Below are positions 3,601 to 43,754 of a stretch of DNA of 64,000 nucleotides, in pieces. Source of the stretch: Paraspadella gotoi (taxonomy: Eukaryota; Animalia; Chaetognatha); contig CM119269.1 in assembly GCA_051294375.1 (NCBI GenBank), positions 17,927,026 through 17,991,025 of the forward strand, in the 5' to 3' direction. Under the pieces are notes generated by a model. The model did no database searches. It worked only from the letters and a program-made list of their open reading frames with translations, and had not been told where the DNA came from. The position numbers and the translations under genes were made by a program. Positions within the stretch are counted from its first letter, which is position 1; the number at the start of each line of letters is the position of its first letter.

Positions 3601-5443
3601 ATACTATGGGCGTATGCGAAAATTGCGAAATTTAAAAAATATATATATATCATGGTTCGTTAGTATAAGACTGTTTATGAACAACTATTCGAATTTTGAT
3701 CTGCAACTTTCACTACGCCTTACTGCTCATCTCCTCAAACGATGCCTCGACAGAATCTCATCTCGACGGCGCATTGTATTTCTTCTTCCCTGCCCGTGCC
3801 CCCCCCCTCCACGCAGGCTACACCATCTTCTCCACCTTCACTGCTTTCTACATCCCGATGATCCTCATACTCTTCGTTTATTGTCAAATTTTTCGCGTCG
3901 TCAAACAAAAGCAAAACGCGATGAAGCGAATGAGGTACGAGATTACTTGAAAATTGCGAATTAATAACTAATAATTAATAACTAACTTAAGATTTTTATA
4001 TTTTATAATGGGGAGGGGGGATGTTAGAGTTGTTTTCTGGAAAAAAAGGGAGGATCTAGTGGAGATCATGATTATTATTATTAGGAGAAGAAAATAAAAT
4101 CTCGCGGCCAAATTCTTTAAAAAGAAATTGTTTTTAAATTAAAATTGGTCAAACGCCGGTTGCAAAACATTATTTGGGAGTATTTTTAGAATTATTTTCT
4201 TTACAAACATAAACCAAAGTTTTTTCTCTCTCTCGCCTTGTAAAAATGATTGCCACTTCGTGCTATTAGCCAATTCTATTCCATTTCGCCATTTTTATCT
4301 CGACCAAACTATCTAATAGATAGTATCTATCTATACTTTACTTACAACCCAAGGTTACTATACTTTCTATGTTGGATTTTTTATTAGACATTCCACATCG
4401 TTCTTGTTAGGGTGTCATTTTGTTTATAAAAGGCCAAACAGAAAATGGGTGGAAGGGATAATTTTGAGATTATGATTAGATACGATAGGCTATTATTATT
4501 GGAAATTTATTACCAAACTTCTCAAACGTATCATCATGATTTAAAATCTCATGTCGTATACTCCCATCACAGGGCGGCGAATCTCAAAATGAAAGGATTG
4601 GAGAGTCACCACCGCGCGCTCGTTCCGGTCGAAAGTCAGACTCAGGTAAATGTGACGTCTTGGGAATCGAGTTAGGGGCGGTAAGGTCAGTCTAAGATTA
4701 GATTGAGATGATCAGCCTCGATTTGTTAGTTGAATGAAAATTTTAGACTGTATATATCAAGGGTAGTGTCGCTTACTGAGTCCTTGCCCTGAAGTCAAAG
4801 GTCGATGCTTTAATTTTGGTGTGAGAAAAATTGGACCTTTAATTTAAAAATTAAAACATTAAAAAAAAAAACTGCTCCCAGACAATTAACCAAGAATATT
4901 TTACCCCTCTAATCAGTGCGACTACAAAGCCGCTCACCTGACGACCGAGAACACGGCCAGCGTTTCTGTCAGCCCAACAGCTTCCGGATGCGGTAAGCGT
5001 GTCATTGCCGCTGCTCTACCAGGCTGTTGCTGTCTCTCGATGCATCGCAGCGTCCTGAGGCGACTAAGTAATTTAATCAATTAACAAAAAAAAACTTTTG
5101 TTTGGGTTTAGTTAAATTACCGAAGCGCGATTCGCCGAAAGCGACGAAACTGAAACAGACACACAAGTCGGTGAGTCGTAGACTGTAACGTGACTGAGGC
5201 GACAGTTGTGTGACAACTTACATAATCCATATATTGGTTGTACCATTTTCATAAAAAACTTTCTCACAAGAAATCGTTCAGATGAGCAAATGTAAACGTG
5301 TTGAAATTTGATGTAATATGACGTGATGTGATATCAGCTGATATGATGAGAAAAAAAAAAGTCTTCTGACAAGGATAAAAAATGTTAGATACTTGTTCTC
5401 ACTCTGTTTCAATCTTGCTCCAAGCACCGCTCTTTTTACCCTT

Positions 5444-5541
<98 letters not shown>

Positions 5542-7054
5542 CTTTGTCGCTCTCACTAACTTTTAATTTCACGGTTAAATCACAAATTTAATTCGGCCCC
5601 CGAACAAAAAAAGCTTAATTTCCTTCGAAAGATCTCTCCCAATTTACGGTTCTACGGTTTCGTATCTCATTATCTTTTACCACCCTAAATCCCGCCACCC
5701 TCCAACCACTCCATCCATATCCTCCACAGTACCACAAGCGGTCTCGACGATCCACTCGGATCCTCGGCCTCGTCATCGGCACCTTCACCCTTTGCTGGCT
5801 TCCGTTCTTCATCAACGCTCTGGTCCGTGAATAGGGCGTCCTCGATTTTTACATTTATCATGATGATTTACAATAATGAATATTGAGGAAGGAATATTGA
5901 ATGATAGATAATGGATAATTTCAATATAAACCAAAAAAGATAATACGAAAAAAAAAACGACAAGAAAAAGAAGTAGCAGTGACGATAAAATAATTATTAA
6001 TTAATTGAAATGATATTGGGTAATTATTATAATCAATCCACGAAACTGAAAAAAAAAATTTACTTGTCGGTCCCCGTCAAAAACCGGTCCTCTCAAAAAT
6101 TTCATATTTATGGATTCATAGATAAAAGAAATCTTTGCCTTGGAAGGCATGTGGGGTTTTATGAGTAGGCGTTTTGAGTCTCAACATTATTATTTTTCAA
6201 CTAATCTCCGAGAAAGACGTTTGAGAGAATTATTTCCCTGAGGATTGTAGTATTCTCAGCAATTCGAATATAACTTGGAAAGGAAAGGGGTTGTAATATA
6301 AGACCACCAAAAAAAAATATATATTGTATTGTATATATATTGTATATATATTGTATTTTGATGCTAGTGCGGAGTACAATAAGTATTCCCCGATCTAATA
6401 CTTAAGGGAGTGGTCTTTTCATACATTTGAAACATTCTTTGAAATATTATACCACTTCATTGATAGGGAAGCCAGGTACTCTGGGAGTGAATAAACGGGA
6501 CTGTGAGAGAGTCTTGATTGAAAGCTTGCAGGGACCTGCAATGTAATTATCTTGTAAGAGTGATGGAGGCCTTGAACCACCAAGGCCTGTCCAAAGTCAG
6601 GGGCAAGATAGCTTATTTATTAAATGAATGGATAATTTTTATATTGGTTGTACCAATTTCATATATATAGAGTGAAAAAAAATATAAAAACAATAATTCT
6701 GTGAAACAAAAGGATTTGAATAGCTCTACGCAGTATTAGGCAGTGTAACTTTTGAAAGGATACCACAAAAAATGATGTATATCTTTGATATTTGAAAAAA
6801 AAACCAAGTTTTTCACTCCCATTCTAATTTCTATTGAGATCCCATTAAAAGATGCAATGTTTATTCGACCAACCCTTTCCTACATCCTCTGCTAGGTGAA
6901 ACCCTTTGTGTCCTCCTACGCCCTTCCCCCTTCCTTCGCCTCTCTCTTCCTCTGGCTCGGATACTTCAACTCAACCCTCAACCCGCTCATCTACGCCGCT
7001 TGTCACGACGAACTGAGGAACAACTTTTGCCGACTTTTACGGTGCCGGTGCTGA
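602..7054 (+). CDS. Biogenic-amine (5-HT1-like serotonin) class A GPCR, multi-exon; N-terminal exon not identified
   Basis: Exons about 602-818 (TM1 IFGNSLV, TM2 SLAVA(D)..VMP; contains indel errors), 1513-1724 ([29 protein letters not shown], with D3.32), 2849-2941 (AWILPAF..LLGW..CMLSQDK), 3817-3934 ([14 protein letters not shown]), 4573-4645, 4917-4992, 5112-5170 (ICL3), 5730-5822 ([13 protein letters not shown]), 6896-7054 ([17 protein letters not shown]). All GT-AG with compatible phases from 1513 on. Confidence 0.9.
3200..3648. mobile_element. Foldback/MITE-like element in GPCR intron
   Basis: Long imperfect inverted arms: caattttcgcattacgcccata / tatgggcgtatgcgaaaattg and gattcgaattcctca / tgaggaattcgaatc; flanked by TA repeats; non-coding. 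Confidence 0.55.
6352..6663 (+). mobile_element. Dispersed repeat R1, probable Penelope-like (GIY-YIG 3' end) relic
   Basis: Near-identical reverse copy at 28864-29178 and further copies; translates (with frameshift) to [22 protein letters not shown]....SCKSDGGL, resembling the C-terminal part of PLE GIY-YIG endonucleases. Confidence 0.55.
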
Positions 7055-12961: not shown

Positions 12962-15900
12962 CTCTGATTTGTTGATTCGCGTTTTAATGATTCAAATATG
13001 AATGTCAAAACGTTAGTACCTACTGTTGCCCTTTAATGCCCCGTCAGGAACTGCAACGAGGTTTGCGGCCCAATTCCCGGAGTCAGCGGAGAAAATGAGT
13101 GCGCAGAATGGGCTCCCGATTACGAGGTGAAGGGCAGTTGTCATTGCATCCATGAATTCAAGTGTTGCCCAAATCCTTGTCCAAAAGCCGACAAGACCGT
13201 TTGTTGGGCAAACAACAAAGAGGGTGAGTTAAAGGACTTTTCTTTAAAAAAATTTATTTTAAAATTTTTATAAGTTGAAAATTGAGTTCAATGCTTGGCC
13301 TGAACATAAATGAGCAATTTTTTTTACATTGACAGACCCGTGTTACCTAAACATACTTATTCATATGCCTGATGATTCATACAAATTTTAATATTTTGCG
13401 AAAAAAAAACTTTACCTTTATTTTTGTCAACTCTTTTTTTTAGGCTTTAAATACCCGGTTGAGACTAGGGACTGTTGCGACTGTCCCATATATAAATGCG
13501 TGACATGCGAACCCGTTGAAGATCCCGCCGCTATCTGCAAAGTAGAAAATCACGATTATCCTCTCAAGTGCTTCGATTATAAAAACCATGGGGCTTCAGT
13601 TAATGAAACTAGATGCTTCAGGTCCACATGCGAATTCAATCCTCCTGATCCTCCCGCAAACGAAGTAAGATACTTTCTTCGATTAATATTTTACTCCTTT
13701 TTTATGAAAATTTGCAAATTACTTGTTTCACTATTTTTTATTTTAATATTTTAATATTTTTATGAAGGATTTAGTATTTAAATCTATTATCGGCAAACGG
13801 CGAGGATAGCCGTGATACCCGGGGCGCGGGGTAATCTCACCAACTGGCGCTAGGGGCTGCGGACCCATCAGTGACCGCCTCCTGTACTGGGCATGTTAAT
13901 ACCGCACCGTCACATTTAAGGCCAGACCCGGATACCCAGGGACTGAACCCGGGACCACGGATGGAATGAGATGATTTAGCCTGCTCGCCCATTGAGACAG
14001 AGGCTCGAGGAGCGGAACAGCAGTGAGGCAGCTTTAAGTCTTAGCTGCCACACACTATATTTATTCAAATATATATTGCTTTCTTTTTAAAAAAATGTTT
14101 TATTTATCTAATAATTCAATTTGGGAGGGGAAGTCAGGGTTGTCTTCTGGAAATAGAGGGAGCATCTATACAACACAAGGTTATATTACTATCTGTCCTA
14201 GTTTTCTAATAGATATCACACATCATTTCTGTTAGAAAGTCATTAATGAAAAATCATAATATCTAAGAGGCTGAACAGAAAGAGGTGGGAATGGATAATT
14301 TTTTGAGGGACCAACGTTATATATGATTTTCTTTACCAATAGGGATAAGACTACCATGTAGAATTGTATGTTCTGATAGGGATATTTTTCTTTTTTTCAT
14401 TTTCTCACTATCATCATTAATTAATTATTAATTCATTGTTTGTTTTTTTTCAACTTGACCCAGCAATGCGACAACGATTGCATGCGGTCTGAAATTGAAA
14501 GGACCGATTGTGGAAAAGACTATGAAGTTTGCGTGAGCGATAGAGTCAAGACAGATTGTCCCTTGGACTCGCAAGCAGAGAGTTCGGCGGAACTGCAACA
14601 TTCGCTCAAATGCTATCACCCTCCAACCGAGGTGGCCCATCCCGAAGGAGGAAAGTTTTACCAATCTCACCAATGCGTCGATTGTGTCAAGTGAGTTAGA
14701 AAAGTTCGCTCATTCGTTCATCTTTTTTTTATGACCCTGATTTGGTTTTAATTTTTAATTACATTTCTCCGTAAAAGGTGGAAATACGACAAGATATCTT
14801 GCGACAAAAAAAATGAGGAAGCCTCCGCTTATGAATGTCATCACGATCACGAAACAAAATACGACAAAGTTTGTTGGAAAAAGATGACAGAACCAGGTGA
14901 ACCTGTCGGTCGCCCATTGCTTGTATTTTATTTGGTGTACATTTCAACTATAATTTTTTTTTCCTTTTTAAGATGAGTGCAAGTGCGATGTTGCCCATTG
15001 CGTAAAAACGCCGGAACGCGACGCTACTCATGTAAGTAGCTTTCTTTTTGGACGATCATAACGTCATGCTTTAAAATCTAGACATTGGTACATGGTACAT
15101 ATTATTTATTTAATCTTTTTTGTTTGTCTAGGAATTTCGCCCGGGAGAACGATGCCCTGAGGGTTACAAAAAAGTGTCCGGAGTTTCTATTTGCGGTTAT
15201 AATCGCGATGTTTGCCTCCAATGTCCGGAAGTCAAAGAACCAGAAAATTGTGACCTGAAATTCAACCGCATTGTCAATGATCACAATTGTAACAATTGCC
15301 CCATTAAGAGGTAATTATAATGTATATCTAAATTTTTTAAGTAAAGGTGTTTGCAAAATATGTCTTCGATTGCATAGAAGTAAGTTCGATCGGTGACAAA
15401 TATATAGTATTTTGGATATAAGTTATAAAGAATTTTAAGAAAAAAATTATTCATTTGATTAACTTTTTGCAACTTTGCTGACACTTGAAAGTTAACATAA
15501 TTTCCATGCCAAACCAATTATTAATTTTTGCGCATAAGAAAATATTAAAACACAGAAGTGATATATAAAAATGAACTTGATAAAATTAATTGGCAAAATA
15601 AGTGCAATGGTTATATTCAAATGATTTTTTTCTTTATTTCTTTTCCTGTTTTCTGCAGATGCGATCCGATTACGATTCCCACGGACGCGTGCGACTCGAA
15701 CACCTATCATTTTGACATAGCGACCAAAACGTTCAGCTGCGTTCCGAAAGGTGGTAAAAGAAAAAGGAAAGTAAATAACTAAATAGGAGAGAAAAGCGCG
15801 AGCCAATTTTAAATTGGCCCGGAAAAATTACATTTCCGTACTTGATATGACACGGCTCGATAGGGAGTTTTTTTCGTTTTGTTTGTTTGTTTTTTTTAAA

Positions 15901-17377
15901 AGACTGATGATGTTGTGAGTGGCACTGAACTCCACTTTAGAAACTAATCTACAATGAGCTAAACTTTCCTACTCCTATCTTGCAATTGTAATTGGTGATT
16001 TTTCAAGATTAAACTTTTCTATTGATGCTTATTTGGTTATCACTGGAAAAAAAAAATAAAATGCTGAAAATAAATTTAGTTTTAATAAATGTATGCTTAT
16101 CATTTAATTCTTTTTTTATCAAAATAATAGAAATAGAAATAATAGAGTTAGTTTTTTCAACTTTAAATATGTTGATACAAATTAGTATTAGTATTAGCAT
16201 CTTTAGTTTTGGTTTAAACTTTTTTACTAAATATTTAGCTAGAAAACATGAACCTTATTAAAAAATTTTTAAAAAAACGGCAGGTGAATTAACTGAGAAA
16301 AGAAGAAATGATGAAGTGATAAGCCACTTTATAAGTGTTGATCTTAACTGCTCTTTGTTCGTCAATTGTGTCATAAATCCCTAATCTTCGGAAACAACCG
16401 AAGACTGATGTAAAAAAAATTGACTTTAAATAAGTCACGGTTCAGGAACTGGAACCAGTAGCCTCGAGCATAGTTCGCGTTGTCGGCTTCCATTATTCCA
16501 TTATAGCGATTCATACTAGGCTAGGGAGGAAACTTCAAATTTCAGTATAGGTACGAAAGTTCAGCATTTAATTATTAAAATTACAGAGATAACAAGAGAT
16601 AGGATTTTTTTTCTCACAATTTTCTCCTCTTTTTTATTTTTAATTCAAATATCTCTTACGATATTTGCGTCATTCACTTTTGTAGTTTAATCATAAGTAC
16701 CTGTTTTTTTATTCAAATGAATCTGTTTGTTTTCTTTGTTTGTAAACAACTTCTTTATTTCTTTTCTTTTCCTCATCAATCTTCTCCACCATATTTCAGT
16801 GACGACCTGCTTCAACTTTCCCGAATCCGAAACGACCGCTCACGTCGACATCCGCCCGCTCAAACGAGAGAACCTCAACTCCTTGACCTTCGACGTCATG
16901 TACACAATGCGAAATGAAACTAAGGACCCGTGGATCCTGAGTTTCGTCAGCACGGACCACAAACACGAGCTGCTCATCGGACCTAACAAGGGATTCCACG
17001 TCAAATCCGGCAGCGTCGCCACCGTCTTGAAGTCCTCCATGGGCAAGAAGATGCGCCTGACGATCGTTTGGAACCTCCTCACCGGAGATTTCTCCGTTTA
17101 CGAGAACATGAAGTTGGAGCGGAAGGGAAATATGAAGACGACCATCTCGACGGAGGGTTTTTTCATGCTGGGACAGATGCTGGGGGTGGATGGATACGAA
17201 TCGGAGAAAAGGTTCATCGGCAAGCTGTGCGGGTTCCAGATGTGGGACAGGGTGCTCTCCAAACAGGAGCTGGAACACCTGTTCCAGGGGGATTTGAGCG
17301 AGAAGGGAAATCTCTTCGATTCGCCCGCCACCTACGAGTTTGAGTTAAAGGATGGGGCAGAGGGTGCAAACCCGTAG
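11803..17377 (+). CDS. Secreted Cys-rich long-pentraxin-like protein, paralog A (610 aa)
   Basis: Exons 11803-11869, 12161-12243, 12421-12452, 13048-13223, 13444-13664, 14464-14690, 14778-14896, 14973-15031, 15132-15310, 15659-15750, 16800-17377 sum to 1833 nt, open throughout. Signal MELKGLLLLVFVVTLAEA; propeptide ending SLSKR; pentraxin motifs FIGKLCGFQMWDRVLS and GNLFD. Confidence 0.92.
12600..12850 (+). repeat. Degenerate (TTAGGG)-like tract in intron 3 of gene A
   Basis: ttagggttagggatttggg-type units. Confidence 0.55.
13788..14054 (-). mobile_element. Solo LTR-like element carrying tRNA-like boxes and a twister-like fold
   Basis: 4-bp TSD CTAT (13784-13787 / 14055-14058); short imperfect inverted termini; minus strand shows a 5' hairpin, A-box-like TGTCTCAATGG, B-box GGTTCAGTCCC, then a twister-like module (13844-13925). 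Confidence 0.75.
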
Positions 17378-18079
17378 TTTTAACTCCCATGGTAATTTAT
17401 TGTCACTTGATAATTTGAACATTCTTGGAAAGGATCGGAATTAAAGAATTTTTTTTTCTGAAATAAAAGAAACAATTTGACAGTTAAGACGATAAAAAGA
17501 TAAAACGATTAAATAATAAAGAATTAAAGAAAGTTTGAAATTAACTTTTTATAGATCAAATTTATTTTTTTAAATTCATTAATTTTTTTTTAAACGGTTG
17601 ATGTTCACACACTAAAAAGAAAAATTCATTCGCACCCACATTGTATAATCTCTCATTAGGGTAACATTTTTATGTGGTGACTCAGAATATATTTTTACGC
17701 TCTATAGCTGAATTCTTTTAAGAAAATTATGAATTGTGAGTCGAATAAAATGTTTAAAAATATAATGGAAATAGGTGTGAGAACCGATCGATTGAATGAG
17801 AAGAAATCACGTCACACTTAATAGGTGTATCCTTGTGTATCGCTATAAACAAAAGAGATAATTGAAGCGTAAAACATTGGTCCATCCTGACACTAACAAC
17901 CGATATTCAATTGACCGAGATTAAACTTTACCAACTCCAGAGATAATATAAAATTTCGACTATTAGCAAAGTATTTTTAGTTGTCTAGACTAACTATTTA
18001 AGCAATCATTTTCCAAAAAAATTTACATTATATGTCTTGAATAATACATTAAATATTACTTGTCTTTTTTTACATTATA

Positions 18080-18535
18080 AAAATTTTTTTTGAAATCTAA
18101 AAATTTCTTGATGGATTCTGATAGAGCATATAAAGTTAAACAAGAAATATAATTACAGCTTTTAAAAATTCTTACGTTTCCTATGTGAAAATATAAAAAA
18201 ATTATAAAATCATTGAAAGATGATGATGATGATGATTTTTTACGGTTTTTCTTATTTTTGACTCACTTATCATGAAAATATCTAAAAAAGAATTATACTT
18301 TGTGCAGACAACTTTTTATGAGCTATCTGAATCTGGTCTTAAAATTTAAAAATTATCAAAAAAATTTGGGCTTTCCTATTTATAAATAAATATTAAAAAA
18401 ATAATTATTTGGGTATAGAGCCACATAAGAAATGTTTTGTTCATTGAAAGTATACTTCAAAATGTATAAATTTTCGTGTGAGCATGTAATCATTCAATTT
18501 TTTTGGCCCACCCCATTGAGTGGGGCTCCCCCTAA
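18080..18535. mobile_element. MITE/DNA-transposon fragment (second copy inverted at about 36109-36570)
   Basis: About 450 bp of clear reverse-complement similarity between the two loci, ending in a GGGG-starting terminus preceded by TA (PIF/Harbinger-like, tentative). Confidence 0.7.
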
Positions 18536-19058
18536 TTTAAGACGAGTTTTCAACCGCGACGATTTAATTTTAGTTTCCTTTGGTTATATTATCTTGAAGA
18601 GGATGAAAGTCTCCCTCTCTCTCTCTCTCTCTCTTTTTTTCTTGCTTTCTCTCTTTCTACGTCAGGGAGATAAACAATCCCGGATACATTAAACCGGTTT
18701 TATTAATCAAAAACATTTTTTACAACGATTTTTATCGTTATTTAGTTCTCAAGGGTTCCCCTTTTGAATTTTTTTTCATCAATTGTAAAAATTGATAGAA
18801 ATTGTTAATAAGGACGGATCCAAATAATATTGAAGGCTGTAGAAACGTGAATAATTGCTGAGATAATCATGAAAGTAATTGCATAAAGATTGAAGGCAAA
18901 GTAAATTTGATGTACTAAATATATTTTACTTCTGATGCTGATTGAAACTGATCTCTTTACAAAATTTATGACAGTAGATAATAAGGCGGGCCAAAATTAA
19001 AAGAGAGAGAAAAAGCTCGAGAAAGAAAGAAAGTGAGAGAGAGAGAGAGAGAAAGAGC

Positions 19059-19096
<38 letters not shown>

Positions 19097-19161
19097 GCAA
19101 ATCTCGTCATTTTCGAAGGTGAGAAAGAAAAAAGAAAGAAAGAAAGAAAGAAAGAAAGAGA

Positions 19162-19241
<80 letters not shown>

Positions 19242-20149
19242 GAGAGATCGCGATCCGCAAATCTCGCCATTTTCGAAGGTCACGATTGATTTCCACGAAC
19301 CGGTTTTTCGAAACCGATTACGTCAGGGAGACGAAAGTGGTAGTGATTATGTCACTGAGCCAAGTGGAAATGATTATGTCATGGTTTATGAAGACGATCG
19401 CATGATGCAGGGTTATTATCACCACACGTGGGAGGAAAGAATAAAAATCACGGGCGAAGCCGAAAATATTTGGTCGGCGAGAAAGTTGACGTCTTTTGTT
19501 TTTGTCGCGTCGAGATAATGCGACTTTTTGCCGTTTATGGCCGAAATAAAAGTTTATGGTTCCTCGCAAATAGAGATATCGCGTGTTTGGTGAATATTGA
19601 CGTTATTTTTGTTGTTGAAAGTTTAACGATTTAATTTATTTTGAGGAATGAAGAAAGTTAACTTCTAATTTCAATTTTATAAGCAAAATAATCAATATTT
19701 AAACAGTCGTCGTCGTTTAGATGTGACAATCCTGCAGACGATGAAAGCAATAGTTATCAAAATAATGAGAGTTATTTGCTCGTTTTAAAATCAGAATAGC
19801 AATTGTAATATTTGAAAAAAATTATTTTTTTAAACAACAACTTCTTTGTCCAGAAATCCTAATCGGTATAATTAAGAATTGATTATTTTGCAATTTTGGC
19901 CTCCGAAACCAATTTACCGAATTTACGATGCGATGATAACCTTTCTCCGGCCACGATCCGGATCGACGATCTCATTCCATGACGCCGGGTGCCGGCGCCT
20001 GGTGCCACGTCCTTGCAGTCTGGCGAGACTCGGACGTTGCCCTCTCTTACCGGACGATTAAAAATTATAGTGATAGTGACAGTGCGGATGCGTTGTTACC
20101 ATAAGTGATACAATTATATCAGGAATGTGCTATTTTATGGAATATGTTC

Positions 20150-20232
<83 letters not shown>

Positions 20233-20575
20233 CTCTTTCTTTCTTTCTTTCTTTTATCATTTCTGTCTTTCTTTCCTTTTTGTTTTTTTTATTTTTGTTT
20301 GTTTACTGTTTTTGTTTGTTTGTTAGTTTCAATCTTCCTGTCAAACTACGATTATTAATTTTTTTTCTCTTTCCCTTTCTTACTTTTAATGTTTCTTTCA
20401 ACTTTCTTCTTCTCTCTAACCATTTTCCTTTCATTCTTTCTTTTTTGTCTCCTCATTCCCACGCAATCCACGTCACCGGTTCCATCACCCCAGACTCGAG
20501 TGGCCCCCGATTTTCTTTTTCTTTGTTTCCCCTTGAGCGATTTTCTGGGAGAGGCGACGTCGGTGCGCCGATGGG

Positions 20576-20582
20576 TATAAAA
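20576..20582 (+). promoter_or_regulatory. TATA box of gene B
   Basis: GGGTATAAAAGG about 110 bp upstream of ATG 20690. Confidence 0.65.
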
Positions 20583-20689
20583 GGAAGACGATGCCAAGGA
20601 ACCTCCGATCTCGATTCCATTCTTTCTCGTTGACTCCTTTCGAAATTGCTCGACTCTCTCGACCATCAGTCTCAATCTTCTCACTCAAG

Positions 20690-23600
20690 ATGGAACCGAA
20701 GAAGGTTTTCCTCTTCGTCTTCGTCCTCGCGGTCGCCGAAGCTTCTTACCTCAAAGGTGAGTTCAGAGCATAAAAGTAATTCGAATCGTAAATAGCCGAA
20801 TTGTCTGGTTTTATTCGTTTGATGGCGTTCTTTTATGGTCGTTTATTTTATGAGGGAATATTTGCATATTGGAGGGACAATTAACAACATTGCACTTTTC
20901 AAATGCAGTTTCTTTTTTTAAACTTTGTATTCGTGATGGAGTATATTGTTTTTTTTTTTTAAATGTTGGATAATATTATATTTAATTTGTTCACTGCAGA
21001 GTTGAGGGATAAACTGAACCTTCTCAACAAAAAGAGTGAGCTCAAGACTCTCAAAGAATTTCTCCGCGAAAATCCGAATCTGGTAAAATGTTCTGTCATA
21101 TCGTATTTCTTTCCTATTGTTTGAAAATAAAAGAAATAGCTATGTGTATTTCTCTGATAAAGTGTGATTGTGAAGCAAACATCGTTAATGTTCACATTTA
21201 TTAATTTTCTTTTATTATTATTTCTTTTATCAGCAGATCCCGACTCTATAATTCACTTTGTCGGTCCGTCGGTCCACCCCCTCAATCTTGTCGGGCATTC
21301 GCTTATATTATGTCCATCCGTCCGTCCGTCGTCCGTCTGTTTATCGGTCCATCCGTCCGTCCGTCAGTCAATTAATCAATTAATTATTCAATCAATCAAT
21401 TTAATTATCTATTAATTAATTATTATATCAATCAATTTATTTATCAATTAATTAATTATTTAATCAATCAATCAATCAAGTCAATTGTTATCGACATTTT
21501 TGTCGTCGTCGCCATCATCGTCGTCGTTGCTTTTGTCTGGTCAGTAATGAAAAAATCTTAAAACAAACATTTCGGATCAAATTAATGGATTTGTTAATTA
21601 ATTACCGTTAATGATCGCGGGCAGATCCGACATTAATTGCTAAACCTTGTTTAATTTTTTTCCACTTTTTCCGAAATACTAGGGACACGAAAGTCTAGAA
21701 AAGCGAGAAACACTGTAAGTACTTTGGTCGTGAACAGTTGTTGAATGCATGCTGTAAACGTTACGAGTTCCATGGATTTTACGTTTTTGTTTCATAATCT
21801 CTTTAAAATTTAAACTTTAAATTATTATTGTTGTGTATGTATAGTTGAACTAACGAAGAAATAAGTTTTTAGGACGTAGGTATCCTGTTTCATTCTATTT
21901 TCGCTCGGATATTCCGTTTTATGAAATTGGTACAACCAGTATAAAAATTATCCATTTATTTAATTGATTTTGAATAATTTTGACTTTGGACAATTGACAG
22001 GCTATACTGGTTTAAGGCCTCCATCCCGCTTACAAGAATCTCTGAGAGTCGAGTTTCTTCACTCCCAAAGTACCTGGCTTCTCTATCAAAGAAGTGGTAT
22101 AATGTTTCAAAAATAGTGTAAATTGTAAAAAGGACCACTCCCCTCGTTGAGCAAGTGTGTGATGTTTTTGAAGTTGGTCGACAATGTGATTTAGCTGTGC
22201 TTCCTGCACGTTTTCCACCAGGGAATGCAACGAAGTTTGCGGTCCGCTGCCAGGCGTCGATGGAAATGTTGAGTGCAGAGAGTGGGCGCCTGATTACAAG
22301 TCGAACGGCAAGTGTCGTTGCATCGTTCAATTCAAATGTTGTCCCGATCCATGTCCCAAACCCAAACAAGAAGTTTGCTGGGGACCCCAAAAGGGTGAGT
22401 GAAAAGGGCAGTCAATTTCCCACTAAACAACGCATGGAATTGAAATGGTTATTCCATACGATTTAAAAAATATATATTTTTTTAAAATTAGTTCTATAAA
22501 TATATTTTAGATATGCGTATTTTTTTGCTACATGCTACTATATAAATTTTCGACACTTATGTTAAACACTAGAAGTTTTGAATAAGCATCTTCCTCTTGT
22601 TCAGGTTATAAATATCCAGTGGTTGAAACCGACTGCTGTGGTTGTGATATTTACGCTTGTCACGACTGCACACCTGTGGCTAAACCAGACGAAATCTGCG
22701 AACTTCCTGGCAAGAATTACCCATTGTCCTGCTTCTCTTACAACGCAACGGGATTGTCGGATAAAGTGACTCAATGCTACGAAGCTAATTGTCCCTTCAC
22801 TCCGCCGCCACCACCGACCGCAGAGGTTCGCCTTATTGACTTAATGACTTACTTCATTTATTAACTCATACGGCAACAGCCGGGTTGCCTGCGATGCCCA
22901 TTGGGATGGGGCATCTCACTGTTGGCTTTTGGGGCTTCCGACCCTCAGTGACACCTCCTGTCACTGGCGCGGTTACCCTAGGACTGTCTCGCTTTGCCAA
23001 CACAGAGGGAAGTCGTTAGGACTGTTGATTGTGAAAGGAACGTAACTCTTGGGATGGTGCGTTCCCCCTCTGAGCCATGAGATTGGCTGAACGATGTGAG
23101 GCGGTGTGAATATACCGCCACACTCATTCATTTATTCATTCTCTCTTTTAATCATCATTTCTCCTAATATTTTACTCTTTTTTTATAACCCTCTTTTTTT
23201 ACCAACCTTGAAAACCTCAACTCACGATCTGATCACAGACGTGTGACTTCGATTGCATGCGGACCGACCCGCGCAAGGACGAATGCGGTCAGGGCTACGA
23301 CGTCTGCGTGAGCAACAAAGTCAAGAGCGACTGTCCCTTGGACTCGCAAGAGGAAAGTGCCGTTGGTCTCAAGTATGGACTTCATTGCTATCACGCTCCC
23401 AAGGAAGTGCCTCACCCGATCGGAGGAAAGTGGTATCTCGCTCACAAATGCGTCGATTGCGTCAAGTGAGTTAGAGGCAACGGTTTCGTATCGGAATAAT
23501 ATTTTTTTGTATTACTTCCTAAACTTTTTAAAAAAAATTATAAATGTGCATTTTATAACTTTATTGCTTCCAGGTGGGACTACCATAAAAAATCTTGTGA

Positions 23601-25232
23601 CGACAAAAATCTGCGCGCTGCCAACTACGCTTGTCCTCACCAAAATAATACTTTCCTCGACAAAGTTTGTTGGGACAAAATTATCAAGCATGGTGCGTCT
23701 GAAAAAAACAAAAAAACATTCTCATTGGGGTAAAAAAAAAAAAATTACGATGGACATAATATTCTTTGTTTCCAGATTCATGTGATTGTGACGTGCCCGA
23801 TTGTGAACGAGCGCCACAACGATCAGCCACGCACGTGAGTCTATCTCTTACTCTACTTCGAACCTATTTCATATGGTCAAATTTTATCGCAATAACGTAT
23901 AATTTTGTCATTTTTTATTTTCAGAAATTCCCCGCAGGCGAAAGATGTCCCACCGGGTACAAAAAAGTGACTGGGGTTTCCATTTGCGATTATCCTCGGG
24001 ATGTTTGCCTCAAATGTCCCGATCTCGAAGATCCTGACGACTGCGACTTGAACATCGCCAAGATTGGCGTCGACCGCGATGCTAACGATTGCCCTGTTAG
24101 GAGGTAAGATCACTCTAATTTTAAATTATAAGAGGGAAAGCATAATTAAATATACGATGTTTACACTATGGTGGACTAAAATCGACCAACCGTTCATCAG
24201 CGACCATTGGTGCCGGAGGCAAGTCATTCGCCTCCCAACCCAAAGGTCCCGGGTTCTAGCTCGATGGTCGCCTAGCAGTTAAGAGGGACGGGGCGCTTAA
24301 CCCGCTTGTAACACGGTGTTACAGCCTGATCCGAAACTCAGGGACTGCTTATATTGAACGGTTCTGTCACATAACAATCATTACTGTCTCTTCAACACAA
24401 TCTTAATTAGCAGCGTGATTAGATTTCTGTCGATAATTTTCATCACAGACATGTAAAAAATTAATCTCTCATTTTACATATAGATGTAAGTGGCCAACAG
24501 TTCCCAAAGGTGATTGCGATTCCGACACTTATTTCTTTGACAAAACCAAGAAAGAGTTTTTCTGCATTCCGAAACGTAAGTAACGAGTTCAACAACTTTG
24601 ATCTTAATTCTTGATCCCTAACCGTTTCGTCACATTTCAATCCAGCGATGACCTGCTTCGAGTTTCCCGCCTCGGAGCTGAAGGCCAACGTGGTTGTCCA
24701 CCCTCTGATCGAAAAGAACCTGAAGGCCTTCACCTTTGACATCCACTATACTATAACGCAAATGACGAGCGACGTGTGGTTCTTTAGCGTGGCTCACTCT
24801 AGACACGACAACATCATCGTCATAGGCCCCAAACGAGGCATTCACTTGGAGTCCGGCGCACTTTACTCGGAACTGACGCCCAGTTTGGGCAAAAGTACTC
24901 GACTGACTCTGACTTACGACGGCGAAACCGGAAACATCAAAGTTTACGAAAACGGTCAGCCAGAGAGAACCGCCAATAGGAAGAACACGGTCCTCCTTCA
25001 AGGCTCCTCCGTAATGCTTGGACAGGAACAGGACAGCGTTGGAGGCAGATTTGACCCCAATCAGAGATTCATCGGCAAGCTGTGCGGATTTCAGATGTGG
25101 GACAGGGTGCTGTCGGATGCGGAGCTGAAGCAGTTGTTCGAAGGGAAGTTGCAAGAGAAAGGAAATGTGTTTGATTCGCCCGCTACTTACATGTACGAGT
25201 TAAACGCGGGAGCGAAAGAGACTGAGCCTTAA
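20690..25232 (+). CDS. Secreted Cys-rich long-pentraxin-like protein, paralog B (612 aa)
   Basis: Exons 20690-20756, 21000-21082, 21683-21714, 22222-22394, 22605-22825, 23239-23465, 23574-23692, 23776-23834, 23925-24103, 24484-24575, 24646-25232 sum to 1839 nt, open; same intron phases as A; propeptide ends SLEKR; intact LGQEQDSVGGRFDPNQ calcium-site motif. Confidence 0.93.
21920..22150 (-). mobile_element. Diverged R1 (Penelope-like) copy in intron 3 of gene B
   Basis: Aligns by eye to the reverse complement of 6352-6663 with many substitutions and a deletion. Confidence 0.65.
22869..23122 (-). mobile_element. Solo LTR-like element related to 13788-14054, with twister-like fold
   Basis: 4-bp TSD CTCA (22865-22868 / 23123-23126); same terminal motifs (TACGGCAA...GCCACA); A-box-like TGGCTCAGAGGG but no clear B box; twister-like module 22920-23002. 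Confidence 0.75.
24167..24394 (+). mobile_element. Solo LTR of the tRNA/twister-like TRIM (intron 9 of gene B)
   Basis: Clearly similar to the LTRs at 27419 and 27842; TA...CA ends; 4-bp TSD ACAC. Confidence 0.88.
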
Positions 25233-26440: not shown

Positions 26441-27451
26441 TCATTGGCGGAGGAGTAGTCATTTAATGGTTCGAGTTTGTTTTCGTTGATAAATTTATAT
26501 GTTTAATCCGAGTTATTGATATTCTTTTTAAAACCGTCACTTAATGTCCGTTTATGTCACTAAACATCATCGTTGATGAACTAAAATAAAATTTGTCTCT
26601 TGTTTTAATTATTCATTCATTTTGAAATTTAGATAGAAAAACGTAATGTCAAACTGTGGAACCGCAAGCGACATTGAAATTACAATTACGAATTCGCTCG
26701 AGATATTTATGACATTGTAATTGAGGAACCACGCGACATCCGCCCTTGAGCTAAAAAAAAAATTTATTGACAATAAATATTGAACTTCGTTTGGGGACTC
26801 CACCCAGATTTAAATGTTTCTGATTTCGATGTGGTTGTCTTTGCATGCTAGTGAAAAAAAATATACACTGTCGATGACCGATAATTGTCGCACAAAAGTC
26901 AAAAACCGCCTTTACTTTTGGCCGTAAACTCTCGAATCTTAGTTCTTCCTTTGCTTCTAAAGTAAAACAAAAAGTTTAGGTAATGAAAGAGGCCAAAGTT
27001 TATGATGCCATTAAATTACATATAGACACAGAGTTCGAACAAAAGACGGAGGCGGAAACTATTTTTTTAAAAATTGAATAACGTTTATAAATAGAAGCTT
27101 TTCATATAATTATAACAAATGTTAGTATATAATCAATCCTCAAGCATCGAGCAGGCTGTAAACGCCCCTGGTGTCTGCCATTAGAAATCGAGTACGACAC
27201 GAGTTAGAGACAAAAGACAAAAGATTGAAAAACGTGTGGCGTAATAGATCAAAGTGAGTAACAGGAGGTTTGGGGACAGGTTAAATAAAAATTTCTTGTT
27301 TTCTTTCTATTTGTTTTTTTTTCCGTTTGTAAAAGTATAAAAGTAGTTGTCCCTCTCTCCAATAGGTAGTTCCAGTTCAAACGAAGATTTGCTTCTATAT
27401 TTGGAAAAAATATGCATCTATGGTGGACTAAAATCCACCAATCGTTCATCA

Positions 27452-27524
27452 GCGGCCATTGGTGCCGGAGGCAAGTCATTCGCCCTCCCAGCCCAAAGGT
27501 CCGGGGTTCTAGCCCGGTGGTCGT
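27452..27524 (+). ncRNA. tRNA-derived module inside LTR (Gly-like, probable Pol III promoter; not a functional tRNA)
   Basis: 73 nt; acceptor GCGGCCA/TGGTCGT pairs fully (2 G-U); T-arm CCGGG-GTTCTAG-CCCGG; A/B-box-like motifs; anticodon stem unpaired. Confidence 0.75.
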
Positions 27525-27527
27525 CTG

Positions 27528-27601
27528 GCAGTTAAGAGGGACGGGGCGCTTAACCCGCCTGTAACATGGTGTTACAGCCTGATCCGAAGCTCAGGGACTG
27601 C
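27528..27601 (+). ncRNA. Twister-ribozyme-like fold (P5-type permutation) in LTR1; copies at 27950-28023 and 24275-24348
   Basis: P5 GCAGTT/GACTGC; GA-CGG(T1); TAA; GC(T2); P3 CTGTAACA/TGTTACAG; P4 CCTGA/TCAGG enclosing L4 T-CCG-AA-GC, where CCG pairs with CGG. P2 is short/imperfect and P1 minimal. Confidence 0.6.
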
Positions 27602-28115
27602 TTATATTGAACGGTTCTGTCATTAACACTTATAAATAATTACTGTCTCTTCATTGGTGAGCCCGACTTCCGAACACAACAGCAACAACAACACTTTCAG
27701 GCGACATGCCTCAACCTGGCGATGCACTTTCCGCCCACAACACATCAGGCGACATGCCTCAACTTGGTGATGAACTTTCCACCAACAACAACAATTCACT
27801 AAAGAGACGCCACAGACTTCTCCCTATGGGAGGAGGGGATGTATGGTGGACTAAAATCCACCAATCGTTCATCAGCGGCCATTGGTGCCGGAGGCAAGTC
27901 ATTCGCCTCTCAACCCAAAGGTCCGGGATTCTAGCCCGGTGGTCGTCTGGCAGTTAAGAGGGACGGGGCGCTTAACCCGCCTGTAACATGGTGTTACAGC
28001 CTGATCCGAAGCTCAGGGACTGCTTATATTGAACGGTTCTGTCATTAACACTTATCAATAATTACTGTCTCTTCACATCCATGGTATATCCTTTCTTTTC
28101 GTTGTTGTATAGAGA

Positions 28116-28247
28116 TTTACAAAGAATTTTGAATTGTTACAACGATTTTATCATGATTAAATTGCAGACTCGAAAATCTCAGAGTCGAAACATGTCTGCA
28201 ATTTAATCATAATAAAATCGTTGTAACAATTCAAAATTCTTTGTAAA
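28116..28247. repeat. 54-bp-arm palindrome with a hammerhead-like degenerate loop
   Basis: Arms 28116-28169 / 28194-28247 (1 mismatch); centre CTCGAAAATCTCAGAGTCGAAACATGTC. Confidence 0.8.
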
Positions 28248-28316: not shown

Positions 28317-29447
28317 ATGGACACCAAGAGTGTTTTTCTTCTTTTTCTCGTCGCCGCCATCGCCAAGGCTATTATCCAGGGTAATTGAGTTAATGAGTTG
28401 AAATAACGGCAATACTGAATAGCTCGAAATACGGACACCGTCGAGAATGTAAATATAAAATAATAAATGATTTATGTTTCCTTTGTATTTCAGAGCCCAA
28501 TGAGCAATTGCAGACTTTGGAAGAATACCTGCGAGACAATCCAAACGTAAGTTATATACCTTTTTTTCATATTCTTTTTTTTTAAACTTAATTTTTATGA
28601 TTACTTTTTCTGCAGAAAGGACAGGAAATCTGGACGCGGGGTCAGCGGTAAGTTTATCGGTGTAATGGGTGTGTCTTGCTTAGCTTCAAAACTTTTTACT
28701 TTAGCCTATGGCTATGCTTCTTTTATTTTTGCTTTTTAATTAACCTTCAACGTTTTCTAATTAACGTTTTTGTTTTTGTAATCATAAACGCATGATTTAG
28801 TTGCTGGTACCTTTTTCCGTTACAAGTTGTACATTTATCGTATTATTTACTAGTGTCTATATATATGAAATTGGTACAACCAGATTATTAAAAATTATCC
28901 ATTCATTTAATAAATAAGCTATCTTGCCCCTGACTTTGGACAGGCTTTGGTGGTTTAAGGCCTCCATCACTCTTACAAGATAATGACATAGCAGGTCCCT
29001 GCAAGCTTTCAATCAAGACTCTCTCACAGTCTCGTTTATTCACTCCCAGAGTACCTGGCTTCCCTATCAATGAAGTGGTATAATATTTCAAAGAATGTTT
29101 CAATTGTATGAAAGACCACTCCCTTAAGTATTAGATCGGGGAATACTTATTGTACTCCGCACTAGCATCAAAATACAAGGAGCTGAATTTTATGAAATTG
29201 GTACAACCAATATAAAAATTATCCATTCATTTAATAAATAAGCTATCTTGCCCCTGACTTTGGACAGGCTTTGTGGTTTAAGGCCTCCATCACTCTTACA
29301 AGATAATGACATAGCAGGTCCCTGCAAGCTTTCAATCAAGACTCTCTCACAGTCTCGTTTATTCACTCCCAGAGTACCTGGCTTCCCTATCAATGAAGTG
29401 GTATAATATTTCAAAGAATGTTTCAATTGTATGAAATATATATAAAT

Positions 29448-29502
<55 letters not shown>

Positions 29503-30882
29503 TATAAATATATATAATATGACCGAAAAGTGTTTTGTTGAGTCACGGCTGTAGTCGCATTCTGCATTCTGCATTCACTTTATTCACTTGGTCACCTCAA
29601 TGGTTTCAACTCTCCTCATGCCACACCCAAACATCGTTTAGCACCAACAACGTCATATGCCCCAAATACTGCGGCGGAAAGCCGCCCATCGACAAAAACA
29701 AGAAATGCCGTAAATGGGAACCATTTTACGAGAAAAAGGGAACTTGCCAGTGCATCGTGAAATTCGAATGTTGCCCCGACAAATGTCCGCCAGTCAAAAA
29801 AGACAAATGCTGGGGCAAGAACGAGGGTAAGCGAAAGATATACTCAAATAGTGTACGAGTGTAAGTATTACGGCAATACTATTCCAATTCATTTCGCCTT
29901 TTTACTTTCCACAAGGCCTCACTTACCCTTTGGAAGGCAAAAACTTTTGCGACTGCGACGTGATAACGTGTCTGCCCTGCCAACCTCTGGAACCCCCTTC
30001 AAGGATCTGCAAACTGGACAATAAGAATTTTCCTATTCATTGCTTCCACTACGACGCCAAAAAGTTGAAGAATCGGGTCACCAAGTGCTACGAGGCCGAT
30101 TGTGAATTCAAGCCGAAGAGGACCGTTTTACCGGTTGATTGCTTTTTGTTTAATTTTTATTTACATTTATTTTAGAATGATTCATCAATTGTTTAAGTTT
30201 TACTTTTTTTTTAATCTGTTAAATTTTGTTTTCCAAGTTTTTTTTATTCGTTTTTCTCCAAGAATTGCGACCTTACCTGCACCAAAGCCAAGCCCGATTA
30301 CGACGAATGCGGTCAGCCGACTCACGTCTGCGTGGGGATCAAAGCCAAGGACGGCTGTCCGCTTAACACCAGAGAGAAGAGTTCCGCCGCCCTTCCACTG
30401 GGGCTTCGCTGCTACCACCACAACCCTCAAAAAGTGCCTCACCCAGAAGGGGGAAAGTATTACGACAACGGGAAATGCGTGGATTGCGTAAGGTGACGTT
30501 TTTTATATTTCAAAACTCAGCAAATACAATACGTACAATATTGTATAAAGACTAATATGCTAAATAACTGCTTCATTAAACAATTGAGTTAGAAGAAATG
30601 TATTTATTTCATGACTCGACAGGTGGAAGTACCAGCAAATTCCTTGCAAGAAAAGTGTCGTGTCATGTCCGAACCGCAAGACCAGCCCCTTGGATCCAGT
30701 CTGTTGGAAGAGAGTAGTTTCTGACGGTTCGTTGCCAAGAAATTTCTCGAATTTGATCTTTTACTCTGATTAAAATTCTTTTTTATTTCTTGCCAGACGA
30801 CTGCAAATGCCAAAGTGTGGTCTGCGAACGCGCGCCTGAAAGACCTCCCACTCACGTAAGTTAGAAAGTTTCTTTCTGTTTT

Positions 30883-30954
<72 letters not shown>

Positions 30955-32336
30955 TTTAGAAAGTTTATTTCCATCTATCTTTCTTTCTTTCTTTCTCTCT
31001 TGCTTTCTTTTTTTTTCAAATTTCAATATTTCTCAGCCTTGATTAAAACAGTAAATCTTCTTTCTTTCCTTAAAAGAAATTTTTGGACGGCGAACGATGT
31101 CCTCGGGGCTACAAGAAGATAACGGGCGTTTCCATCTGCGCCTACCCGCGCGACCTCTGCTTCCGATGTCGTAAAGTCAGGGATCCCGTCGATTGCGACC
31201 TGAAGGTGGATAGGATCGTCCACGATCGAGACGCCCACGGGTGTCCCGTTAAGACGTAAGGAGGAGATTTTATTTGGGGGGGGGGAAGAATTAGAGAAAA
31301 ATATAATGGTGGCTTAAAAAAAGGATTTCGAGATTTCGATTTAATAGTTGTAATTAGCTAAAATTAACGAAAGTTACAAAGACCGAGATAAACTTTGAAT
31401 AAAACATTTAATATTTTTTCCGTAACTATGAAGTCTCTCACATTTTTTTCCCAGTTGCCAGCGGTCATCTGTTCCGAAAAAATACTGTCGCTCGTCCACT
31501 TACTATTTTGACAGGCGACAAAAAACCTTCGAATGTATCCCTAAAGGTAAGCCATTTCGTAGGTAAGTCAATCTGTGCCTCTGGTCGTCCGATTATTTTA
31601 TTCAATCCGCTGTCAGGCTCTCAAACTCTTCGGCTTCCAGAACAAATCACCAATTTTATCAACTTGCCTGACCTTCTATTCTCACCTTTTTTCCCTCCGC
31701 CCTCCTCTTTCCCCCCCAGCTTTGTACTGCTTCGTCTTTCCAAAGAACCAGATCGAGGCTAACGTTCATATCAAACCGTTGATCGAAAAAGACATCGACG
31801 CCTTCACCTTCGACGTCTACTACACTATGACCTCCCCGACGAAGGATCCTTGGATCTTGAGCTGCGCTCACAAAAACAAGTACAACGCTCTCGTCATCGG
31901 TCCGAAAGATGGCGTTCTGGTCGGCTCCAAGTCGCTCTACACGAGACTGACGCCCCCTCTGAACCAAGAGACGCACTTGACGATCGTTTGGAACGGCGTC
32001 ACCGGCGACATCCGGGTCTTCGTGGACGGAAAGCTGGAGAGAAGAGGGAAGAATAAGGCGAAGACGGGGAAGACGGGGAAGAAAGTGTTAAAGGGATGTC
32101 GCATGATCTTGGGTCAAGAGCAGGACGAGGTCGGAGGAAAGTTTGACCCGACACAACGATTCGTGGGGAAACTGTGCGGGTTTCAGATGTGGGATAGGGT
32201 GTTGAGCGAGGCTGAGCTGAAGTTGCTGTTTGACGGACGGTTGCCGAAGAATAAAAATGGGAATCTGTTCGACTCACCACCGAGTTATAAGTACGAGCTG
32301 TTGAAGGGAGCCACGAAAATCATTTCCTACGACTAG
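28317..32336 (+). CDS. Secreted Cys-rich long-pentraxin-like protein, paralog C (610 aa, Lys/Arg-rich)
   Basis: Exons 28317-28380, 28494-28546, 28616-28647, 29642-29826, 29916-30133, 30263-30492, 30623-30726, 30797-30855, 31077-31255, 31455-31546, 31720-32336 sum to 1833 nt, open; signal MDTKSVFLLFLVAAIAKA; LGQEQDEVGGKFDPTQ motif. Confidence 0.92.
28864..29435 (-). mobile_element. Tandem full + partial R1 (Penelope-like) copies in intron 3 of gene C
   Basis: 28864-29178 and 29190-29435 are near-identical to each other and to the reverse complement of 6352-6663; partial-tandem arrangement is typical of PLE pLTRs. Confidence 0.7.
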
Positions 32337-34727: not shown

Positions 34728-36108
34728 GATTAAATGTCCTCATCCAGAGTTATCACTGTCACTCGCGCCGACTTCAACTCGTGAGAACGAAACGCTGATC
34801 CTAGACTCGGAAACGAATTTTCTCTTACCATCGATTAACATAAAAAGCGATGGTCCGATTCATGTTTTGTTTACGTTTCGCTTGTTTGTTTACTTTTCTC
34901 ATGTATTCATTACGGGATAATCTGATCCGATCGTCGCGATGTCCAGGCGGAAACGAGGGGTCGGTGGGTCATCCTTCTCTCATGAGGAGTTGCTTCGAGG
35001 TGATAGCAAAGTTATAGTTCGAAGTTATAGTTTTAACTTAAAGTTTAAATCAACTTTTTAAGTTCTGAAAAACAAATTCTGAAAATGGGAATATTATGAA
35101 TATAAAATGTTCGGAAACTGGTTACAACCTTTACTCATTTCTCTCTTCTCCTAAAAATCGATTTATTTTCTCTCAATTCGAACCAGAAATCATCACGCGA
35201 TTCGCCCAATTTTTTTTTTTTTTTCGTTCATCGGAATCGATTTTTCCCTCAAAATTCCAAATCCTTAATCCCGAAATTGAGGCTGAATCGATCGACTGGG
35301 AAATTGTTATTTCTTCGGATCGGGAGAGAGAGAGAGAGAGAGAGAGAGACCCGCAGGTCGGACCCACAGCTCGTCTAGACTTACGTGGACAAAGCGGGAG
35401 TACCGACCACCCATTGCCCATCTGCCTTTTTATTTACACACATAAAGTCATACATACTCTTTCTCTCTATCTCTCTCACTCCCCTTTCTCCCTCTCGCCT
35501 TCCCTCTCTCTTTTTTTCTCTATCTAAAAATATACAGATAGAAGTTAATCGATATTCGGTCAAAATCAAAGCGAGCCCGTTTCGCATCTTTTTTCATCTA
35601 TTTTGCCAAAGTTTCAGCTTTATGCAAATCGGTTATGACTTGTTTTTTGTCCTTTGTCTCACGTATTTCTTGTGAATCTTTCTACCTACCTACTTTGTTG
35701 CTTTTTAAATAAAAAGATAAAATAATTAAAACAATTCTAATACAATATTTACAATGCTTTTTCAACTTCTAACTTCCGCTTTATTATGAGAAAAAGTGAA
35801 AGAAAAATCTCAGGATAAAAAAAAAAGGAAAATGAGATTCGTGGCCTTGAGGCGATTTCTTTTCTCGCCCATAAAAATAATCGGCGGGAATTGGAGCCAA
35901 ACGTGAAGGCTGACGGCAAAGCCGACGTCCAAACCATGTAGTTATTAGAAGAAAAAAATGAAAGGATGAGCGAATCGACAAACTCTTCATGAATGGGATA
36001 TTTGAGGCTACCGTATGAATGCCGTACACATCGGGCACGGCTACGGCGGGCTTTGTCTTATGGCGGGAACCACGAAGCTGGAATTCGTCGAGAAGGGTTT
36101 TTATTACA

Positions 36109-40656: not shown

Positions 40657-40823
40657 CACAACGAATTTATTAGTAATAAACAGACATGTTTCGGCTTTAG
40701 TTAGAGAGAGAGAGAAACTTTTGCCCTCTCTCTCATTCTCTATATATATATTTTGTTTATCAAAATGAAGGCTTGCAAACTAAAGCCGAAACATGTCCGT
40801 TTATTACTAATAAATTCGTTGTG
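40657..40823. repeat. Inverted repeat containing the 3' half of a minimal hammerhead motif (Penelope pLTR-like)
   Basis: Arms 40657-40702 / 40778-40823; TGAAGGCT..AGCCGAAACATGTC followed by AATAAA. Confidence 0.6.
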
Positions 40824-43660: not shown

Positions 43661-43718
<58 letters not shown>

Positions 43719-43754
43719 CGCACGGGAAAAACCACTCAGCAATCGTCCCACCCT

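Follow-up and report, generated by a model that had tools for sequence, protein, structure and literature searches.

Solo LTR-like elements with a predicted P5-type twister fold in the chaetognath Paraspadella gotoi

The retrozymes of the literature are plant long terminal repeat (LTR) types with a type III hammerhead ribozyme and animal non-LTR types with a type I hammerhead; here and below, comparisons refer to the passages of each published source that were covered. Plant LTR retrozymes replicate through an RNA circle, the same logic as proposed below, and solo LTRs are common among them (Cervera 2016, PMC4918200). Animal Helenus elements, which belong to the miniature retrotransposons with terminal repeats known as TRIMs, have 4-bp duplications of the target site (TSDs), tRNA-like LTRs and a Gypsy-type primer-binding site (PBS) (Kojima 2024, PMC10886601). 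Helenus TRIMs have been described as having no functional RNA, and in the passages covered PMC10886601 describes no ribozyme in them, the word appearing once, in a reference. Mention is also made of type III hammerheads in insects (unpublished) and of truncated twisters at RTE 5′ ends. The subject of this work is a pair of short elements, E1 and E2, in a 64,000-nt stretch of the chaetognath Paraspadella gotoi (assembly GCA_051294375.1, contig CM119269.1, positions 17,927,026 to 17,991,025, forward strand), hereafter the window, in which all coordinates are given.

We consider it reasonably likely that E1 and E2 are solo LTRs from non-coding mini LTR retrotransposons of Helenus-like type with a predicted P5-permuted twister in the LTR, and that full-length members would act as animal LTR retrozymes replicating through an RNA circle. 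The boundaries and 4-bp TSDs of both elements, the pairings of the fold, and a window element of like layout with two LTRs, a PBS and a polypurine tract (PPT) are directly established. No report of twisters in LTRs or TRIMs was found among the titles, abstract openings and passages covered, although the original twister paper and its lists, Repbase and bioRxiv supplements lie outside this coverage and may hold such reports. The literature compared also includes PMC7761336, PMC6765202, PMC5680766, PMC8782182 and 10.1101/2024.07.11.603121.

Boundaries and layout of the LTR-like elements

The features of E1, E2 and the reference TRIM family of the window, including motifs like those of RNA polymerase III (Pol III) promoters, are as follows; T4 denotes a run of four T residues.

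13788-14054, minus strand: E1, LTR-like element of 267 nt
13784-13787, plus strand, with partner 14055-14058: E1 TSD CTAT, exact 4 bp
14023-14053, minus strand: E1 5′ terminal hairpin with 11-nt arms
13939-13999, minus strand: E1 boxes resembling those of Pol III promoters, A at 13999-13989 and B at 13949-13939, each with 1 mismatch, 50 nt apart
13844-13925, minus strand: E1 predicted P5-type twister, cleavage-site base 13898 substituted
22869-23122, minus strand: E2, LTR-like element of 254 nt
22865-22868, plus strand, with partner 23123-23126: E2 TSD CTCA, exact 4 bp
23096-23122, minus strand: E2 5′ terminal hairpin; the 8-mer ATCGTTCA comes next
23067-23077, minus strand: E2 A-box-like motif, 1 mismatch
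22920-23002, minus strand: E2 predicted P5-type twister, UAA intact, predicted cut before 22974
24167-24394, plus strand: TRIM-family solo LTR, TSD ACAC, T2 mismatch
27419-28075, plus strand: reference TRIM with two LTRs, ends TA...CA, TSD CATC, no T4 run
27419-27653 (235 nt) and 27842-28075 (234 nt), plus strand: TRIM LTRs; the 4 substitutions and the 1 gap between them all lie outside the fold
27654-27667, plus strand: TRIM PBS, 13 of 14 letters equal (by eye) to the tRNA-Trp PBS of Gypsy-32_NVi and Helenus-2_SyJa
27828-27839, plus strand: TRIM PPT
27528-27601 and 27950-28023, plus strand: predicted TRIM twisters, identical in sequence
27552-27973, plus strand: predicted cut-to-cut TRIM monomer of 422 nt, between both twisters

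The positions, minus-strand orientation and TSDs that the earlier note had given for E1 and E2 proved correct, exact repeats being found at both. Both elements have the ends TG...TA and no T4 run, with a GC content of 58% in E1 (28% in its flanks) and 56% in E2, and no A tail, simple-repeat tail or long terminal inverted repeat (TIR) was found in the sequence of either copy. The earlier note had named TSDs of variable length as a mark of short interspersed nuclear elements (SINEs) or miniature inverted-repeat transposable elements (MITEs); E1, E2, the two-LTR TRIM and the TRIM-family solo LTR (4/4) all have exact 4-bp duplications. The insertion site of E1 is a high-copy AT-rich host repeat, and in contigs from public runs of the same organism host-repeat copies without E1 join across the insertion point with a single CTAT left, as a TSD requires, which supports the duplication; these contigs are paralogous copies rather than proven empty alleles.

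The order of 5′ hairpin, Pol III-like box or boxes and fold had been claimed for both elements; the hairpins are present in both and the A and B boxes in E1, while E2 has the A-like motif only. ARAGORN returned nothing in E1 or E2 and a low-threshold cloverleaf only in the TRIM LTR, where a B box is present. Counted from the 5′ end, the predicted cut falls at 157 nt in E1, 149 nt in E2 and 134 nt in the TRIM LTR, and the 8-mer behind the 5′ hairpin is common to E2 and the TRIM LTR, an equally long shared word occurring in 43 of 2000 shuffles. Global identity to the TRIM LTR is 53% for E1 and 51% for E2 versus 47% for shuffles, with local alignment scores of 25 and 18 (null maxima 24 and 28), which agrees with the weak likeness noted earlier. 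Along their length, E1 and E2 are homologues, with 57% identity versus 48% for shuffled sequences (0/200 shuffles) and the best identity, 64%, in the fold; judged by this similarity, they are sister families and not independent witnesses. The claim that one structure is kept over three sequence families thus overstated the independence of the families.

Several features argue for E1 and E2 as LTRs: TSDs fixed at 4 bp, neither a tail nor a long TIR, modules ordered as in a proven LTR, a similar cut offset and, for E2, the 8-mer shared with the TRIM. Their status as solo LTRs, asserted from the outset, is thereby made probable through the TSDs, the missing tail and the TRIM-like layout, but not through any paired form of E1 or E2. 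In the TRIM itself, the predicted monomer lacks an R repeat and has a circular minimum free energy (MFE) of -122.5, versus -108 +/- 6 in 40 mononucleotide shuffles. A 46-nt direct repeat (89%) also lies in the internal region of the TRIM, at 27697-27790, and its units show 10-nt complementarity with the tRNA-like portion of the LTR.

The predicted twister fold and its variation in reads

Pairs of the fold were tabulated by coordinate rather than by alignment or covariance model because MAFFT alignments fell off register at P2 and T2 of E1 and at P4 and P5 of the TRIM. E1 has a P5 of 5 bp, complete P2 (4/4), T1 (3/3), T2 (2/2) and P4 (3/3), a P3, and the GA at 13911-10. E2 has a P5 of 7 bp, P2 3/4, T1 2/3 (mismatch at 22985), T2 2/2, P4 3/3, a P3 of 8 bp, and the GA at 22988-87. 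The helices quoted in the earlier note (P5, P4, L4, P3 and the GA-C(G/A)G motif) could all be located. The general-base G with its following A, the L4 U...A and the closing G-C are present in both E1 and E2, and the cleavage-site A with its following A is present in E2 and the TRIM, not in the E1 copy. Double-sided changes separate E1 from E2 in P2 (pairs 3-4) and at the outer pair of P5, and E2 from the TRIM at two pairs in P3 and two in P4; in a fourth family described below they occur at T1 pair 3 and T2 pair 1. Both pseudoknots, T1 and T2, covary across families.

A twister descriptor was built from Rfam consensus lines and the twister topology, with which review passages agree. Its penalties are 1 for E1, 2 for E2 and 1 for the TRIM LTRs. 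The E1 penalty was reached by 0/1500 dinucleotide shuffles and that of E2 by 7/1500 with the loose and 1/1500 with the strict form, and the antisense strands of E1 and E2 gave no parse at a penalty of up to 3. A strict scan of the window yielded 8 sites at a penalty of up to 2, seven of them in repeats, versus 76 in 76 shuffled windows, and 5 sites at a penalty of up to 1 versus 3 in the 76 shuffled windows. Application of the loose descriptor to the whole window was rejected as unspecific, since AT-rich DNA yields 1128 hits in 33 shuffled windows. E1, E2 and the TRIM reach no gathering threshold of Twister-P5 (RF02684) or twister-P1 (RF03160), and Rfam scans gave no hammerhead match for any of the three; E1 and E2 are not members of the Rfam twister families at these thresholds, nor of the hammerhead-defined plant retrozymes. 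Profile searches of the window recovered no new copies beyond those used as input, except for a fourth-family copy at ~22006-22036. A metagenome scan with a 19-nt E2 word returned three loci; in 3/3 the match is 20-21 nt long, fortuitous and set in DNA that is unrelated. Viral contigs gave 0 matches.

The model of the fold had predicted which bases of the window copies of E1 and E2 are decayed, and contigs assembled from four public runs (X2, X3, X6, X9) were compared with it as share of depth per base. At 13898 of E1 the model base makes up 74% (X3), 82% (X2) and 100% (X9, one contig) of depth, and the gap in E1 P3 is filled in many contigs; among the variant rows listed, E1 core variation lies mostly within P1. 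At 22985 of E2 the pairing base makes up 97-99.6% of depth in 4/4 runs, so that the middle T1 pair of E2 is flipped relative to E1. The cleavage-site substitution of E1 and the T1 mismatch of E2 are thus mostly private to the window copies. Among the variant rows of the E2 family, 17/23 fall in the 5′ half and 6/23 in the fold, none breaking a core pair. Together with the shuffle tests and the double-sided changes in P2, P3, P4, P5, T1 and T2, these private flaws support the earlier proposal of a selected twister-like fold. Summed depth over E2 is ~1.5 million versus ~200 in the flank, a figure that is summed depth and not copy number, which suggests a very large family. A sister family of E1 is also seen in the runs at window positions 13812-13885 and 13956-13998, with a summed depth of up to ~260,000; the E1-specific part has a summed depth of ~1,000-2,500, and the deeper sister family has no base at 13867, as in E2.

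The earlier note had placed mismatches in P2 or T1 of both copies and thought both possibly inactive. The mismatches apply to E2; in the preferred reading of E1 its 4-bp P2 is perfect and its flaw is a substituted cleavage-site A, rather than a P2 mismatch. A high-throughput study reports that no activity was left in 5/5 cases once the general-acid A was lost, that faults in P1, P2 and P4 were tolerated, and that, within the 3-bp pseudoknot, mismatches of the A-G type were among those better tolerated. Given this published tolerance, the E1 ribozyme is probably inactive, whereas the mismatches of E2 are of the better-tolerated kinds and its ribozyme may be active and able to cut.

A proposed cycle and its rivals

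In the proposed cycle, Pol III would initiate at the tRNA-like box of the 5′ LTR and, without a T4 terminator, would read through the element. The twisters in both LTRs would cut, in the TRIM giving the 422-nt monomer without R repeat, and a host ligase would close the monomer into a circle. The circle would be copied by a Gypsy-type reverse transcriptase (RT), primed by a tRNA at the PBS as proposed for plant retrozymes, and a Gypsy integrase would insert the cDNA with a 4-bp TSD; solo LTRs could arise by recombination or from short cDNAs.

A number of observations weigh against this reading. In the fold, the E1 copy has a U at the cleavage-site A position 13898; the TRIM has an A-U at the closing G-C of P4, a pair called 'essentially invariant' in the twister literature; P4 is one pair shorter than canonical in E1 and E2, and T1 departs from the canonical GRG. 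P1, which is reported as dispensable for twister activity, consists of 2 weak pairs at most and varies among E1 copies. With pseudoknots left out of account, the nested helices named above come out 7.5-10 kcal/mol higher than the MFE, and the E1 fold has z = +1.3. The descriptor was written after the elements had been inspected, the Rfam scan gave no ribozyme match for E1 or the TRIM, and E2 scores 15.4 bits on twister-P1 (RF03160), where the cut-off is 67.2. In the reads, base 13898 is unchanged in X6 (0 of depth 80), and a further 14 variant rows of the E1 table lie outside those listed. The P2 C-A mismatch of E2 is family-wide, not being listed as variable, and the 3′ hairpins of E2 are as invariant as the fold, whose low variation may come partly from the youth of the family. 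E2 has no B box at up to one mismatch, and no PBS-bearing or paired form of E1 or E2 occurs among the contig ends listed.

Chief among the rivals is a linear-RNA model with a terminator-like role, in which a real twister replaces the Pol III terminator; RNA that escapes cutting in the 5′ LTR but is cut in the 3′ LTR would keep a repeat of ~100 nt and retrotranspose as linear TRIM RNA without circles. Such a role would suit the lack of a T4 run in E1, E2 and the TRIM, whereas a T run stands directly behind the tRNA-like part in many published Helenus LTRs (by eye), and short P1, P2 and P4 helices with competing folds could slow cleavage. We nevertheless hold it to be unlikely, as the two TRIM ribozymes are identical and leave no reason for cutting the 3′ copy alone, and as plant retrozymes of this layout make circles (PMC4918200).

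Rather less likely still is that E1 and E2 are SINE-like or MITE-like single units that share a promoter-plus-twister module without being LTRs. The exact 4-bp TSDs, the missing A or simple-repeat tail and long TIR, and a module order equal to that of a proven LTR all speak against it. Their similarity to the TRIM LTR is weak, and they end in TG...TA rather than TG...CA, but some published Helenus LTRs also end in TA (PMC10886601). The rival is also favored by the absence of a paired E1/E2 form among the contig ends listed, and by contigs that exit both E2 ends into heterogeneous AT-rich DNA (agreement 0.44-0.54). Full-length TRIMs would be expected with heterogeneous flanks as well, and their shared internal part would collapse into few contigs; such flanks fit solo and full-length copies alike. 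The least probable of the three rivals, and one to which we give little credence, is a chance or fossil twister likeness that was kept by common descent of GC-rich repeats and was never catalytic here. It can draw on the Rfam misses, on a descriptor that postdates sight of the sequences and whose loose form is common in AT-rich DNA (the 1128 hits in 33 shuffled windows), and on the homology of E1 and E2; however, shuffles of like composition hardly ever give a match, covariation between families is seen in the two pseudoknots, and the bases predicted at 13898 and 22985 were found in independent reads.

Neighboring features and comparison with known systems

A fourth family in the window is AT-rich and has a twister-like P5 fold without P3; its copies are listed below.

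28864-29436, minus strand: fourth-family copy
6351-6671, plus strand: fourth-family copy
21917-22142, minus strand: fourth-family copy
58475-58633, plus strand: fourth-family copy

It matches Rfam Twister-P5 weakly (E 0.08 and 0.32). The copy of 1.8 units has a 323-nt cut-to-cut monomer and lies within a TA microsatellite, and no PBS was seen in it by eye; the family is a candidate twister-bearing retrozyme of the non-LTR type.

The animal DNA of the window is rich in microsatellites and contains pentraxin exons and a G protein-coupled receptor (GPCR) fragment. Three tandem copies of a multi-exon pentraxin-domain gene lie at 13045-17377, 22219-25232 and 30302-32336, with matches to sharks and rays at 32% identity, and E1, E2, the TRIM-family solo LTR and the TRIM are all located inside this gene cluster. 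The rhodopsin-family GPCR fragment at 1535-1729 holds transmembrane helix 3 with a DRF motif and matches molluscs and a crinoid at 56-60%. MITE-like or palindromic elements are found at 18078-18540 and 36104-36570, 3199-3652, 28116-28247, which starts 40 nt past the TRIM, and 40657-40823. An inverted duplication (40827-43100 / 43250-45287) of ~2.3 kb and 80% identity carries an Ala/Ser-rich reading frame, which, when tested, gave no Pfam match.

Among known systems, Helenus and TRIMp3 elements (PMC10886601) share with the window elements a short non-coding LTR structure, a TSD of 4 bp, the occurrence of solo LTRs and an LTR length within the published range, and E1 also has, with one mismatch each, the two boxes of the tRNA-like Helenus LTR; a tRNA PBS and PPT, likewise as in Helenus, are established for the window TRIM alone. 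Unlike in Helenus, 100-110 nt comprising most of the fold and further hairpins lie behind the predicted cut, with no T run, and the B box is missing in E2. No twister was noticed by eye in the published animal Helenus sequences of the PMC10886601 supplement, where a search for six L4 motifs gave 3 matches, all in internal regions, line breaks being able to hide others. The LTRs of the gall-wasp elements Helenus-2_SyJa and Helenus-2_SyUm in that supplement do show, by eye, a type III hammerhead layout right behind the B box with no T run, comprising CUGAUGA and GAAA cores, three helices and complementary loops. Their PBS is of the tRNA-Trp type, to which the window TRIM PBS corresponds in 13/14 letters (by eye). 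Helenus-2_SyJa and Helenus-2_SyUm are thus put forward as candidate insect LTR retrozymes, the hammerhead being absent from the PMC10886601 text in the passages covered.

A broader proposal, which we advance tentatively and with slightly more doubt than confidence, is that animals harbor LTR retrozymes transcribed by Pol III, whose ribozyme can be exchanged as a cassette behind a promoter of tRNA origin: P5 twisters in two or more LTR lineages here and a type III hammerhead in gall-wasp Helenus-2, with small circles as in engineered tandem-twister constructs and very high copy number. If true, a twister in animal TRIM LTRs would join the plant LTR and animal non-LTR retrozyme classes, would make LTR retrotransposition a role of genomic twisters, would explain how a terminator-less Pol III TRIM sets its RNA ends, and would parallel in nature the engineered expression of circular RNA from tandem twisters. 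Twisters overlooked by Rfam may likewise be represented here, with their covaried T1 and a P5 layout that includes P3.

As in the type-P5 twister (RF02684; PMC5408937), the termini lie in P5, and P2, P4, T1, T2, UAA and GA follow in order; unlike it, the predicted fold has a P3, a minimal P1 and covaried T1 letters and scores far below the Rfam cut-offs. The RTE/Perere-3 twister variants (PMC8501958) likewise combine a weak or absent P1 with an animal retroelement, but they are single 5′-end ribozymes of long interspersed nuclear elements, whereas the E1 and E2 folds lie mid-LTR. Animal non-LTR retrozymes (PMC7229834; 10.64898/2026.07.22.740005) are also small ribozyme-bearing non-autonomous retroelements, with tandem type I hammerheads and, as stated there, without LTR, PBS, PPT or 4-bp TSDs. 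Plant LTR retrozymes (PMC4918200) differ in host, in having a type III hammerhead rather than a twister, in the Pol III-like promoter found here, and in a monomer of ~700 nt with circles seen, compared with the predicted 422-nt TRIM monomer. They nevertheless agree with the window elements in a ribozyme in each LTR, here predicted, a PBS and a PPT, here those of the TRIM, a 4-bp TSD, the lack of an open reading frame, solo LTRs, and a predicted cut-to-cut monomer without R repeat.

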